Positions 11,384-26,344 of a stretch of 32,000 nt of DNA are shown here, one piece after another. Both the position numbers and the translations under genes were made by a program. The stretch covers positions 28,618 through 60,617 of the forward strand of contig NZ_LDJI01000015.1 in assembly GCF_001431415.1 (NCBI RefSeq), given 5' to 3'. Under the pieces are notes generated by a model. The model saw only the letters and a list, made by a program, of their open reading frames with translations. It ran no database searches and was not told the origin of the DNA. This stretch comes from Stenotrophomonas humi (lineage in GTDB: Bacteria; Pseudomonadota; Gammaproteobacteria; Xanthomonadales; Xanthomonadaceae). Numbering within the stretch: the stretch's first letter is position 1; the number at the start of each line of letters is the position of its first letter.

Positions 11384-12229
11384 CTACTTCTTTCTGATCA
11401 GTTGCGTCTCAAACAACCTTTGCTCCTCGTTCAATGCTTCGATACGCGTATCAATCCGCGACATTACGGCAGTGACGGTTGCTTCAAGGCTTGTAGCCTT
11501 CTCTTTGAGTCCTTTCAGACCACCATCGATAGCAGCATCGTAGATATCGATCTTCGCGCGATCGTCGATTTTGGTCGTCGCGCTCTCTTCGTCGTACTTG
11601 TAAAAAAAATCGGGACCTTTGAGGTCATCGATGTGGCTTTGCGCGGACTGCTGGTACGCCTGCAGCTCGACCTCAAGCCTCTGGATTTGCTCCAAGTCAC
11701 TCATTGCAAGCTCGGACTTGAACTCATCGCTCCATTGAACCAGCTTGATTCTCGACAGAGTGAGTTCGATGCGAGTACGCATTGCGCGGCGTCCCAACAT
11801 GAAGGCGTTCGGGATGGCCTCTGGCAACTCAACTCCTTTACTACGCATCTCTATGCGCCGATCGACCTGCCTGAGTACCTGGGCTGGATAGGTGCCAATA
11901 CTCGCCTTGTTTCGAATAATCGCCAAACGGGCGCAACTACCGTCGACCTTTGCGCGGGATTGCCGAACGCTTTCCGCCCGTCGCGCAACCTCAGACAATC
12001 GCGAAAACTGAACGGCTTTCCAGCTGATTATGCCTGCAGCGATACCGGCCCCGATCGTTCCGAACGCCGCAAGCCAAGCAGCTCTCTTCTCAGAGTTAGA
12101 GTCGGAAACGAACGATACGTCCAGGTTGAAAATGATCACTGCGCTGATCATCCCGATCGCATACACAAATGCAGTGGCTACTACAACTGTGGTAGTGGGA
12201 ATCCACATGCCGGATTGTTTTACATCCAT
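11384..12229 (-). CDS. Phage A cargo protein: two N-terminal TM helices plus ~190-aa helical/coiled-coil domain
   Basis: Start MDVKQSGMW at 12229, in frame within ORF 11384..12592, with AAAGGGGGCGGT upstream. TM1 is TTTVVVATAFVYAIGMISAVIIF and TM2 is AAWLAAFGTIGAGIAAGIISW, followed by a K/E/Q-rich helical region. GC is visibly lower than in the neighbours. The antisense ORF 11306..12274 has junk-like composition. Confidence 0.6.
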   Translation of the reverse strand: MDVKQSGMWIPTTTVVVATAFVYAIGMISAVIIFNLDVSFVSDSNSEKRAAWLAAFGTIGAGIAAGIISWKAVQFSRLSEVARRAESVRQSRAKVDGSCARLAIIRNKASIGTYPAQVLRQVDRRIEMRSKGVELPEAIPNAFMLGRRAMRTRIELTLSRIKLVQWSDEFKSELAMSDLEQIQRLEVELQAYQQSAQSHIDDLKGPDFFYKYDEESATTKIDDRAKIDIYDAAIDGGLKGLKEKATSLEATVTAVMSRIDTRIEALNEEQRLFETQLIRKK

Positions 12230-12270
12230 ACCGCCCCCTTTGGCGTCCGTTCCATTGGGGGGATTCTGGC

Positions 12271-12438
12271 ATGACCAGCATCCTCCTTGCTCTCTGCGGT
12301 GTGTGCGGCTTCTGCCTCGGTCGCGGATCCGTCCTGCTGATTTCATGGATCCTTGACCGCCGCGATTCGCGTGTTGATTCCGCGTACCGCGCTGCTCGCC
12401 TCGTTGCCGTCTCCAGGGCGGAGGTGAGTCGTGATTGA
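12271..12438 (+). CDS. 55-aa small membrane protein conserved in both prophages
   Basis: Manual translation gives MTSILLALCGVCGFCLGRGSVLLISWILDRRDSRVDSAYRAARLVAVSRAEVSRD*. A near-identical 55-codon ORF lies at 25428..25595 (-). It is below the ORF-track length cut-off. Confidence 0.55.
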   Translation: MTSILLALCGVCGFCLGRGSVLLISWILDRRDSRVDSAYRAARLVAVSRAEVSRD

Positions 12439-12521
12439 GGTTGCCGCGTTCCTGCTGTGCGGCATCTTCTTTACGGTCGTGCCGCTCGCGTTGTTCGGTC
12501 TGCTTGGAAAGGGGAAGCGCG

Positions 12522-12713
12522 GTGGCTGATCCCTCCTGCTTCGTCATCACTGCCAATGAGTGGCACCGCTTCGCTGGGGTTCTGGCTTTCATGGCCGTTC
12601 TTTACCCAGTGTTCGGCGCTTTGATCTTTGCCGATTGGCAGGGCTGGCTTGAGTACTTTCGCCGCCGCGCCCGTCGCCGCCGCATCCGCGCCATTCGGCG
12701 GGCCCGCTCATGA
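12522..12713 (+). CDS. Possible 63-aa TM protein with Arg-rich tail (phage A-specific insert)
   Basis: GTG 12522 (VADPSCFVITANEWHRFAGVLAFMAVLYPVFGALIFADWQGWLEYFRRRARRRRIRAIRRARS*). The stop overlaps the next start (ATGA at 12710). In prophage B the homologous VAD codons run directly into the RQIPYGV gene. Confidence 0.3.
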   Translation: MADPSCFVITANEWHRFAGVLAFMAVLYPVFGALIFADWQGWLEYFRRRARRRRIRAIRRARS

Positions 12714-13021
12714 GCCGGCAGATTCCTTACGGCGTGCGCAGCGCCAGCCCGCGCTTCTACCAACCGCTGCCGCCGTCATCGCACCTGGACGCGGAAGTCG
12801 ATGCGCTCCGCGCCATGCCGGAACCGGAATACGTCATTGAACAGCGCATCGGTGATGGCGATTGGCAGCAGAAGTGCCGCTACGGCGATGACGTTGCATG
12901 GGCTGTAGAGCGCGTCCGCTGGTGGAACGCGCTGCTGCGTGGCCGTCGCTCGTATCGCGTTGTTGCCGTCCTCGGCAACAGCCGCTCTGTCGTTTTTGGG
13001 GAGGGCATGCGCCATGGTTGA
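12710..13021 (+). CDS. Conserved phage hypothetical protein upstream of Rep
   Basis: 103 aa (MSRQIPYGVRSASPRFYQPLPPSSHLD...), almost identical to 25045..25359 (-). It overlaps the Rep start by 8 nt. Confidence 0.65.
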   Translation: MSRQIPYGVRSASPRFYQPLPPSSHLDAEVDALRAMPEPEYVIEQRIGDGDWQQKCRYGDDVAWAVERVRWWNALLRGRRSYRVVAVLGNSRSVVFGEGMRHG

Positions 13022-25052: not shown

Positions 25053-25359
25053 GGTGCATGCCCTCCCCAAAAACGACGGAGCGGCTGCTGCCGAGGACTG
25101 CAACGACGCGATAGGAGCGACGGCCACGCAGCAGCGCGTTCCACCAGCGGACGCGCTCTACGGCCCATACAACGTCACCGCCGTAACGGCACTTCTGCTG
25201 CCAATCACCATCACCAATGCGCTGCTCAATGACGTACTCCGGTTCCGGCATGGCGCGGACCGATTCAACTTCCACGTCCAGGTGCGACGAAGGTGGCAAC
25301 GGCTGGTAGAAGCGCGGGTTGGCGCTGCGAACGCCGTAGGGAATCTGACGGTCAGCCAC
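25045..25359 (-). CDS. Conserved phage hypothetical protein upstream of Rep
   Basis: Homolog of 12710..13021. The probable GTG start at 25359 (VADRQIPYGVRSANPRFYQ...) overlaps the stop of a tiny upstream TM ORF (GTGGCTGA). Confidence 0.6.
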   Translation of the reverse strand: MADRQIPYGVRSANPRFYQPLPPSSHLDVEVESVRAMPEPEYVIEQRIGDGDWQQKCRYGGDVVWAVERVRWWNALLRGRRSYRVVAVLGSSRSVVFGEGMHHV

Positions 25360-25427
25360 GGCTGCGACCACGGAGATAGACAAACAGGGAGACGACCCAC
25401 GCAACAACTGCAAAACCGAAAAGGAAA

Positions 25428-25595
25428 TCAAGCACGACCCACCTCCGCCCTGGACACGGCAACGAGGCGAGCAGCGCGGTACGCGGAATCAACACGCGAA
25501 TCGCGGCGGTCAAGGATCCATGAAATCAGCAGGACGGATCCGCGACCGAGGCAGAAGCCGCACACACCGCAGAGAGCAAGGAGGATGCTGGTCAT
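25428..25595 (-). CDS. 55-aa small membrane protein conserved in both prophages
   Basis: MTSILLALCGVCGFCLGRGSVLLISWILDRRDSRVDSAYRAARLVAVSRAEVGRA*. It starts at 25595 within ORF 25428..25739 and has the same length as 12271..12438. Confidence 0.55.
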   Translation of the reverse strand: MTSILLALCGVCGFCLGRGSVLLISWILDRRDSRVDSAYRAARLVAVSRAEVGRA

Positions 25596-25636
25596 GCCAG
25601 AATCCCCCGAATGGAATGAGCGCCTAGGGGGGCGAG

Positions 25637-26344
25637 ATGAGCAATGGAGACCACAAAGTCTCGACGATCGAGATATGGAGTGCCGGTGTATTGCTGTTCT
25701 GCGCAGGCGCGATGTTTGGAGGCTGGGCCACCGGAACATTCAGCACGAAGGGCAATGCAGCTGATTGGGTTGCAGCACTCGCAGCTGCAGTGGCGGCTGC
25801 GGGCGCTTGGGTGATCGGCTTTATGGCTTGGCGCATATCGCAGCGCTCCCAAGAACACAATGAGTATGTTCAACGAGAGGACAGGGAGCGGACTGAGAGA
25901 CGCGATCGAGCGCTTATTAGGAATCTGAGATATCAGCTCAGAAACATAGTTGCGGGTGCACAAGTCATTCTTCAGAAGGAAAGCATTAGCACGCTCCCTA
26001 GGTCGGCCGTACTTAGAACGGTCGGCACATTCGCCGGCAACTTCCTTCACACAGATCGAATGATTGACGTACTTCCGCTGCTGAGACCAAAACAGGTGAC
26101 CTCGTTGGAGCGGATTCAATCTCTTGTCTTCGTCACCACTGCGGCCAGGAGAAGCTTTGAGGAGAGCGCCAATAGTCGGGACCTCACTCAACCGTTGAAC
26201 GAAGTCGACATGAAGTACTTCGGCAACCTCATCACTCAGCTGACTGAGCTCAAAGCTACTGCGGAAGCGTTTTTGGCACTGCTCGCGGATGAGGACGCAG
26301 ATGGTCAGAACGAGAAGGCGAAGACCGCTCCGCGTCCGGGCTAG
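25637..26344 (+). CDS. Phage B cargo protein: two N-terminal TM helices plus ~165-aa helical domain
   Basis: TM1 is IWSAGVLLFCAGAMFGGWATGTF and TM2 is WVAALAAAVAAAGAWVIGFMAW, followed by a charged helical domain. It has the same locus, the same orientation relative to Rep and the same architecture as 11384..12229, with no obvious sequence similarity. Confidence 0.55.
   Translation: MSNGDHKVSTIEIWSAGVLLFCAGAMFGGWATGTFSTKGNAADWVAALAAAVAAAGAWVIGFMAWRISQRSQEHNEYVQREDRERTERRDRALIRNLRYQLRNIVAGAQVILQKESISTLPRSAVLRTVGTFAGNFLHTDRMIDVLPLLRPKQVTSLERIQSLVFVTTAARRSFEESANSRDLTQPLNEVDMKYFGNLITQLTELKATAEAFLALLADEDADGQNEKAKTAPRPG

Follow-up and report, generated by a model that had tools for sequence, protein, structure and literature searches.

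How can a compact filamentous phage carry an additional gene between its repressor and its replication genes, on the strand opposite to the latter, and still express its replication operon? The question is raised by a 32,000-nucleotide stretch of Stenotrophomonas humi DNA (the window), in which two filamentous prophages, A and B, lie tail to tail. In each prophage one gene, here termed the cargo gene, is located between a CI-like repressor gene and the operon of the replication protein Rep, co-oriented with the repressor and opposite to Rep. Cargo allele A (11384..12229, minus strand) encodes a protein of 281 amino acids (aa) and cargo allele B (25637..26344, plus strand) one of 235 aa. The initial annotation had located both open reading frames (ORFs) correctly, and GenBank annotates them on the same strands (ABB26_08680 for A and ABB26_08780 for B); it had proposed that they are unrelated membrane proteins of matching architecture, swapped at a hotspot of phage defence. 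The most interesting result of our analysis concerns the other strand: each cargo gene lies within a long antisense frame that is wired into the early operon, and selection for keeping this frame open is replicated among diverged alleles.

The antisense frame, here termed the leader ORF, is arranged similarly in both prophages. In prophage A it extends on the plus strand over 11312..12274, starts with GTG at 11306 or 11312 and is read in the codon-complement frame of cargo A; its TGA overlaps the ATG of the first conserved early gene, ORF55, in the sequence ATGA at 12271-12274. In prophage B it covers 25592..26374 on the minus strand (260 aa from the ATG at 26374), is likewise the codon complement of cargo B, ends with the residues GILA and overlaps the ATG of the B copy of ORF55 with its TGA. 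Taken over 11306-12274 and 25592-26410, the opposite-strand ORFs comprise 322 and 272 aa, respectively, as compared to 281 and 235 aa for the cargo genes. All 12 alleles for which the DNA context was examined, two in the window and 10 in fetched loci, occupy the same inovirus slot, and in all 12 the cargo gene is situated wholly inside the leader ORF and antisense to it. The leader ORF begins just 3' of a conserved Shine-Dalgarno sequence in eight alleles, as checked by eye, and in 11 of the 12 it ends in GIL(A/S) with the ATGA overlap with ORF55. In the remaining allele, D (L017, 367-1293, plus strand), it continues in frame into ORF55, a predicted fusion, and this is the sole allele lacking the ATGA.

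The antisense frame is open because the cargo genes are devoid of TTA, CTA and TCA codons. Among the 12 pooled alleles CTA was found at none of 210 CTN codons, TCA at none of 90 TCN codons and TTA at none of 61 TTR codons (0/361). With conservative rates taken from backbone genes, avoidance of this extent has a probability of at most 2.5e-14, and a far smaller one when the control is taken from within the same genes; eight alleles scored singly gave P values between 1e-3 and 1e-5 each. A general codon bias was rejected as an explanation of the open frame, since A-ending codons make up 25% in the other four-fold boxes of the same genes and TTA, CTA and TCA do occur in the backbone, where none of six genes is free of them.

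Selection acts differently on the two strands. The translations of the two-transmembrane (2-TM) cargo frame are conserved between alleles, whereas the protein sequence of the leader ORF is not, apart from the first 23 residues of the allele C leader ORF, which are the same as in the 45-aa leader ORF of a phage with an empty slot (L005). BLOSUM scores were 110 and 181 for the sense frame and 33 and 68 for the antisense frame, and in the aligned parts mismatches were most frequent at the third position of the 2-TM codons, less so at the first and least at the second. Thus amino-acid selection operates on the 2-TM strand, and openness is all that is selected for in the opposite frame. A Shine-Dalgarno sequence and a start codon are present on both strands. 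The initial annotation had named expression of the opposite-strand ORFs as an outcome that would overturn its proposal; this fails insofar as the amino-acid selection is on the 2-TM frame, and it holds insofar as the opposite frame is under selection to remain open and is tied to the early operon.

What, then, do the cargo genes encode? Hydropathy revealed two N-terminal hydrophobic stretches in each product, at residues ~10-43 and 50-69 in A and ~13-33 and 41-65 in B. In A the hairpin is followed by a helical cytoplasmic domain of ~210 aa, in B by a four-helix bundle (residues ~78-230). The AlphaFold2 model of B reached a predicted local distance difference test (pLDDT) score of 68.8 overall and ~80-90 in the C-terminal four-helix bundle; that of A (pLDDT 53) was too poor for structure search. 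Hydropathy and models together bear out the architecture proposed initially, two N-terminal TM helices with a helical remainder. The charge pattern fits an N-in, loop-out, C-in topology, and we predict an inner-membrane hairpin with a short conserved periplasmic loop, FSTxGNxADW, and both termini in the cytoplasm. The A allele, described earlier as AT-rich relative to the backbone, indeed is, and so is the B allele, with a GC content of 52.5% for A and 54.9% for B as compared to ~60% for Rep.

In direct comparison the two products show no evident similarity (BLASTP E=0.89) and the cassettes share no DNA similarity, as had been reported; the conclusion that they are unrelated nevertheless fails when bridging alleles and profiles are taken into account. 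Further alleles came from loci retrieved with Rep and ORF55 as queries, the latter in a metagenome scan with a five-sequence alignment. Allele C (L001:3493-4245) matches both A (E=4e-10) and B (E=5e-8), allele D (L017:376-1092) matches B (E=2e-15), and a partial allele, E, occupies the same slot in L018. Just 21 members of the family, 178-281 aa long and with C and D included, emerged when 1.84 billion representative proteins were searched exhaustively with a profile; among them are full-length relatives of B (P0003, 1e-21; P0004, 3e-14). With profiles of the C-terminal domain alone, a middle group connects the A-like and B-like groups (E=2.5e-7 and E=3e-6), and the direct A-to-B comparison gives E=0.02 in the same register. 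The members share the motif FSTxGNxADW..AA..GTW.IG..A.RYAREAH, and their mean pairwise identity is 35% in the N-terminal and 14% in the C-terminal part. Because of the bridging alleles and the linked C-terminal profiles, sequence comparison identifies A and B as two ancient alleles of one rare, fast-diverging membrane-protein family. It includes copies in S. maltophilia and is restricted to Stenotrophomonas-type inoviruses.

Searches for known relatives of this family gave little. Pfam, PHROGs and PADLOC returned nothing useful for A, B and both opposite-strand ORFs, the PHROGs matches being weak and TM-driven; PADLOC gave nothing for A and just E=0.0015 (15.5 bits) for B. Across all 22 family members Pfam found no known family and no host-modulating family, and PADLOC gave three single-member matches only, the best at E=1.4e-4; by sequence or profile the cargo proteins do not belong to the PADLOC families or to the Sie, Rex and Imm types. 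The family profile matched just designed or generic helical proteins among PDB sequences (E>=0.007), and when A, B and a three-sequence profile were run in word-indexed searches against 5.8 billion proteins, the queries alone came back. Using tblastn, neither B nor an S. maltophilia member found a match in 50,697 phage records; megablast of both prophages recovered ~33 bp of Rep only, and no viral contig matched a sequence pattern of the family. The Foldseek comparison that had been suggested at the outset, run with the B model, retrieved no known fold beyond generic four-helix bundles (the FAT domain, chemoreceptor ligand-binding domains and designed bundles), with E>=0.02 in PDB and E>=0.007 in BFVD. 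One BFVD match, to an uncharacterised protein of the HP1 int-cI region, was discarded as evidence (E=0.02, root-mean-square deviation 19). As to a structural or assembly role in the inovirus, which would have spoken against the initial proposal, no Pfam or PHROG structural match was obtained, the gene lies outside the Rep-to-Zot module and close relatives do without it.

The suggested survey of the slot in relatives showed it to be polymorphic, either filled by very divergent alleles or empty. Where the contig shows them, the neighbours are the small early ORFs and Rep_trans before the cargo gene, on the opposite strand, and a CI/DUF3693 repressor gene after it, on its own strand. Both the Rep side and a CI/DUF3693 repressor are visible in seven loci; in L026 only the repressor is seen, the contigs of L017 and L034 are short, and L027-L029 represent a remnant in which no repressor gene was called. 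In these last three, which encode identical proteins, there are two differences, both synonymous by construction. The slot is empty between the same flanks in L004, L005, L012, L019, L020/L021 and phage phiSMA7; hence the cargo gene is accessory. No second gene family was found in the slot in any locus examined, and since every filled slot holds the same family, the notion of a hotspot for unrelated cargo did not survive the survey. Cargo and immunity alleles reassort: P0004, of the B subfamily, adjoins A-type operators and repressor in L022, and a B-like repressor occurs with allele B, with allele C and with an empty slot. A matching of repressor type to cargo type was considered and is ruled out by these combinations, A-type operators being found with both A and P0004. 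As a separate observation, in L026 (3877-7052) an A-like allele, P0016, and its DUF3693 repressor gene have PycTM and cyclase genes directly after them, which precomputed Pfam matches mark as a Pycsar-type defence pair; no Rep gene was called on this 10-kb contig, which may be a decayed prophage in a defence island.

The boundaries of the cassette are sharp. In blastn, prophages A and B have just four stretches in common, among them the ORF103-Rep region (86% identity), 207 bp 5' of the cargo (12232-12438 versus 25634-25428, 95.7%) and 57 bp 3' of it that include a hairpin (88%). The upstream homology stops exactly at each cargo ATG, and such a break between conserved flanks marks a real replacement and not a chance event. 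A motif, TGCCAGAAT, precedes both genes, at 12263..12271 on the minus strand in A and at 25595..25603 on the plus strand in B, and abuts the ORF55 start codon of the other strand. In the form CATGC[CG]AGAAT it is found 41-47 nt 5' of every cargo ATG; all 16 matches are upstream of cargo genes, and none was found elsewhere on either strand of the 560 kb of window and loci, empty-slot phages included. We regard it as a candidate extended -10 element (TGnCAGAAT) that could serve as the cargo promoter.

On the other side of the cargo gene lies the region from which the early operon is probably transcribed. In empty-slot phages the order in the direction of Rep is the repressor start, a hexamer TTGAC(A/T), 16-18 nt, a T/A-rich hexamer, a hairpin block, the Shine-Dalgarno sequence GGGGAGGGG and the first early gene, with the two hexamers flanked by repeats specific to each repressor. 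Prophages A and B keep this leader order. In A, operator-like repeats on the plus strand (11181..11247; TGTCCAC at 11181, 11202 and 11229, an inverted copy at 11241) surround a predicted early promoter (-35 TTGACT at 11194-11199, -10 TACTTT at 11217-11222, plus strand), and the leader element follows at 11248..11303 on the same strand, with a hairpin at 11262-11289 and the Shine-Dalgarno sequence GGGGAGGGGG at 11294-11303. In B, all on the minus strand, the repeats (26436..26504; TGTCGA twice and a TGTTGAA/TTCAACA inverted pair) accompany a predicted promoter (-35 TTGACA at 26492-26487, -10 TTTACA at 26469-26464) and a leader element at 26382..26435 with a hairpin at 26395-26422 and the Shine-Dalgarno sequence GGGGAGGG at 26389-26382. 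The TTGAC(A/T) hexamer is found at the same place by the repressor start in B, L004, L005, L019 and L021 despite their differing operators.

The hairpin had been described as a common element following both cargo genes. It is conserved (the 88% block above), but its occurrence is not tied to the cargo. Empty-slot relatives and phiSMA7 have it too, immediately before the first early gene, and it is thus a leader element of the phage backbone between the predicted early promoter and the Shine-Dalgarno sequence. A role as intrinsic terminator of the cargo gene was rejected, as the cargo strand carries no U-tract and the hairpin is present where the cargo is absent. The leader element occurs in two sequence classes of the same layout. 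The second class, found in phiSMA7 (L030, 459-524), L025 (6724-6789), L026 (4838-4903 and 385-450) and L028 (3475-3540), has different stems, and the 3' arm of one stem sits in the loop of the other, which would form an H-type pseudoknot. Compensatory variants of the former stem (CCCGCCA/TGGCGGG, CCCACCA/TGGTGGG and CCCTCC/GGAGGG) hint at such a structure, and the G-U pairs in the leader element fit just the early-sense strand. Fold statistics for the leader are weak (covariation term of the nested consensus -0.47, single-sequence z-scores -1.6 and -1.8), and Rfam found no family anywhere in the window.

The remaining genes of the two prophages are as follows. Prophage A is read on the plus strand, with Rep_trans at 12939..14102 (Pfam PF02486, 2.1e-25) and the Zot gene at 16369-17523, and prophage B on the minus strand, with Zot at 20016-21257 and Rep at 23952..25127, the latter assigned from its translation and from the 86% DNA identity of its region to A. 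Both repressors are encoded on the strand opposite to Rep and end in a hydrophobic helix. The A repressor (10801..11178, minus strand), a CI-type helix-turn-helix (HTH) domain with DUF3693 and a hydrophobic C-terminal tail, matches Phage_CI_repr (3.4e-8) and DUF3693 (5e-9) in Pfam and phrog_638 (2.7e-26); its start is probably the ATG at 11178, as read from the sequence, the ORF list giving an upstream GTG at 11235. The B repressor (26505..26801, plus strand; HTH and DUF3693, 98 aa) is of a different immunity type and matches phrog_638 (1.4e-26), with weak Pfam matches to HTH_3, CI_repr and DUF3693. ORF55, a small single-TM protein (12271..12438, plus strand; phrog_2181, 2.3e-8), is followed in A by ORF92 (12435-12713, plus strand) and ORF103 (12710-13021, plus strand), each joined to its predecessor by an end-to-start overlap; its B copy (25428..25595, minus strand) is 96% identical, and homologues are present in all related loci.

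A second variable position of the early operon lies between ORF55 and ORF103. It is occupied by the 92-aa membrane-like ORF in A, by a different ORF of 53 aa in B (25352-25513, minus strand), and by an ORF of 184-223 aa without a Pfam match in L003 (4122-4676), L010 and L019 (843-1514). The 184-aa ORF of L003 was considered as a DNA methyltransferase and dismissed after the Pfam search gave no match. The fourth stretch shared by A and B, 65 bp at 18342-18406 and 26787-26850 (85% identity, inverted orientation), joins the right end of prophage A to the 3' end of the B repressor region, and could represent what is left of a B-type repressor gene, or else a site of attachment or recombination. 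Prophage A is flanked by near-duplicate genes (10311-10721 and 17890-18243, both minus strand) whose translations both begin with MSDTYNLDNRPPCWEPGTQCPNSCASDHYRRV; the right copy resembles DUF3653 weakly, below the cutoff (E~1e-3), and the left one has no Pfam match. A distinct third DUF3653 gene (18432-18725, plus strand, E=3e-8) lies between the prophages, and these genes suggest that the A/B junction holds a remnant or an additional copy, tandem or partial. Directly after Zot, prophage B carries a TraX-family gene (19402-20019, minus strand; Pfam 7e-47), and a homologue is found at the same place in the related viral contig L004 (1951-2568). TraX belongs to the F-pilin acetylase family and is an unusual accessory gene in a filamentous phage. 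Finally, a tyrosine recombinase gene (27697-28776, plus strand; Phage_integrase 3e-12) lies ~900 bp past the B repressor, and a similar integrase adjoins the same kind of prophage in L033 and L003, so that inoviruses of the A and B type may bring their own integrase.

Returning to the question posed at the outset, we are highly confident of the anatomy itself, namely an optional cassette placed antisense between the leader Shine-Dalgarno sequence and ORF55. The cassette would consist of the TGCCAGAAT motif, a short 5' untranslated region, a Shine-Dalgarno sequence and the ORF, pointing toward the repressor gene. Early transcripts, which would start by the repressor gene, must cross it backwards, and for this reason the complementary frame would be kept open as a translated leader ORF. 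Most likely, ribosomes would thereby cover the ~0.8-0.95 kb of leader RNA, either avoiding Rho-dependent polarity or delivering translation to the genes from ORF55 to Rep. In the lysogen the repressor would shut the early promoter, and a promoter belonging to the cassette would drive its transcription toward the repressor gene. The membrane protein could then act in phage-phage conflict, by superinfection exclusion or by a defence of the abortive-infection type, with the variable bundle as its specificity part and the conserved TM hairpin as effector or anchor. Activation of the early promoter would then switch the cassette off, through RNA pairing combined with convergent transcription and translation. 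Taken as a whole, a lysogeny-side exclusion or defence protein that is silenced as early transcription crosses it is our best reading, put forward tentatively and at somewhat under an even chance of being right in every part. A role in phage conflict is suggested by the optional presence of the gene, its orientation, its predicted membrane location, the old and reassorting alleles and the hypervariable domain, and by precedent in inoviruses, in which two of 10 hypothetical proteins tested blocked other phages (PMC6813254). More speculatively, the cassette may be read both ways by design: the added gene would be tolerated in the early leader only because its codons let ribosomes read the complement strand, and its mRNA would in turn be a kilobase antisense brake on the early operon, a proposal that we consider plausible though less likely than not. 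If true, it would define a new design rule for accessory genes in compact single-stranded DNA phage genomes and a natural example, unusually clear and repeated across 12 diverged alleles, of one sequence selected on both strands.

Several points weigh against the exclusion or defence reading. The database and structure searches above (PADLOC, Pfam, PHROGs, PDB sequences, and Foldseek against PDB and BFVD) linked the family to no known exclusion or defence protein by homology or fold, the matches being noise or generic bundles. Two related prophages with different alleles co-reside in the window, so neither allele fully excluded the other phage, and the variable part is predicted to be cytoplasmic, which would suit sensing better than an entry block at the surface. 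Moreover, both promoters, translation of the leader ORF and the involvement of Rho are inferred from sequence: the cargo motif has no -35 element, the -10 boxes of the predicted early promoters are weak, and a consensus promoter scan did not call them. The main rival is one in which the cassette mainly regulates its own phage. Its ~0.8-kb mRNA, antisense to the early leader, and convergent transcription would impose a second lock on the genes from ORF55 to Rep, or the membrane protein could act on its own repressor, through the hydrophobic DUF3693 tail, or on ORF55 or ORF92, and so tune lysogeny versus virion production. In its favour, the whole gene runs antisense to a leader ORF that is coupled to the early operon, the repressors carry a hydrophobic helix at their end, and the arrangement resembles the replication control of plasmids R1 and ColIb-P9 by leader peptide and antisense RNA (as cited in PMC10724649). 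Close relatives nevertheless function without the cassette, one repressor type is found with various cargo alleles or none, which leaves no allele matching, and a role purely at the RNA level would leave the amino-acid conservation of the TM hairpin and the hypervariable folded domain unexplained; we therefore deem such self-regulation unlikely, while still taking it seriously.

The other alternatives are less probable still. A factor of lysogenic conversion acting on host physiology (envelope, pili, motility, biofilm or virulence) would have the usual profile of a moron, a membrane protein in repressor-like orientation, optional and AT-richer than the backbone. A cytoplasmic domain with a mean identity of 14% and old, reassorting alleles point instead to an arms race and not to a fixed host target, and in view also of the missing similarity to any known host-modulating family we consider this improbable. 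That the slot swaps unrelated membrane genes, as first proposed, would agree with the non-significant direct BLASTP comparison and the dissimilar cassette DNA, but is contradicted by the bridging alleles and the profiles and by the single family in all slots examined; it has very little likelihood left. Least credible of all is the view that the 2-TM ORFs are shadows and that the real genes are the opposite-strand ORFs (11306-12274 and 25592-26410). All 12 alleles keep the frame of the latter open, and it possesses a Shine-Dalgarno sequence and start codon and is coupled to ORF55; yet the opposite-strand translations are not conserved, substitutions fall at the third positions of the 2-TM frame, no family matches the opposite-strand ORFs and GenBank annotated the 2-TM frame. 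The exclusion or defence reading with a silenced cassette remains the one we prefer.

The locus shows a way in which a compact filamentous phage can take up an accessory gene without breaking the expression of its replication genes. It also defines an uncharacterised, fast-diversifying membrane-protein family, with members in the opportunistic pathogen S. maltophilia, that is a good candidate for phage-phage exclusion or the control of polylysogeny. Exclusion and defence genes are known from the lysogeny modules of other temperate phages: lambda rexAB is co-transcribed with cI, and Sie2009-type genes of lactococcal phages and defence genes of mycobacteriophages are located beside the repressor. 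Like these, the cargo gene is optional, lies in the prophage lysogeny module of a temperate phage beside the repressor and co-oriented with it, encodes a protein predicted to be in the inner membrane and exists as divergent alleles. Unlike them, it is placed upstream of the repressor inside the early leader instead of occupying an intergenic slot of its own, its variable part is cytoplasmic and no sequence or fold relation to them was found; its activity is, at present, one that we infer. A further parallel is offered by switches with convergent promoters, such as pR/pL of coliphage 186 and prgQ/prgX of pCF10. There, as here, lysogenic-side and lytic-side units face each other and overlap, which makes transcriptional interference and antisense effects possible, whereas in our case the overlap extends over ~0.8-0.95 kb and contains a whole protein gene, and both promoters are predicted.

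Leader ORFs under antisense control are described for plasmid R1, with CopA and tap/repA, and for ColIb-P9, in which a pseudoknot and Inc RNA control repY/repZ (Blomberg et al. 1992; Asano and Mizobuchi 1998; both as cited in PMC10724649). The systems share a leader ORF coupled, here by prediction, to downstream genes of the replication module, its stop overlapping the next start (in 11 of our 12 alleles), a putative structured element by the Shine-Dalgarno sequence and a complementary transcript from the opposite strand, which we would expect here from the cargo gene, the sole opposite-strand unit across the leader. They differ in that the antisense transcript would here be the full mRNA of a membrane protein and not a small dedicated RNA, that the leader ORF has 260-320 codons as compared to ~25-30, and that the predicted coupling involves ORF55, which lies three genes before Rep, and not rep directly.

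Long antisense overlapping genes have been reported in bacteria: Pseudomonas aeruginosa has two antisense ORFs that are translated (PMC8850804), and further cases come from E. coli O157:H7 (PMC9927249). The cargo gene and its leader ORF resemble these pairs in the long, full overlap on opposite strands, in the codon-complement frame and in the statistical upkeep of the second frame, so that selection is evident on both frames. In contrast to those pairs, the second frame is conserved in its openness only and not in the protein sequence of its product, so that it seems to be of use for translation as such, and its start and stop are tied to the Shine-Dalgarno sequence of the operon and to the next ATG. 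In bacteria and phages, antisense genes that overlap over their full length are rare, and they are contested since the evidence usually comes from one locus. Here the constraint against stops recurs in 12 diverged alleles without shared DNA similarity, in a frame with a clear start and end in the operon; hence, the use of this shadow frame can be tested directly by a few silent mutations.

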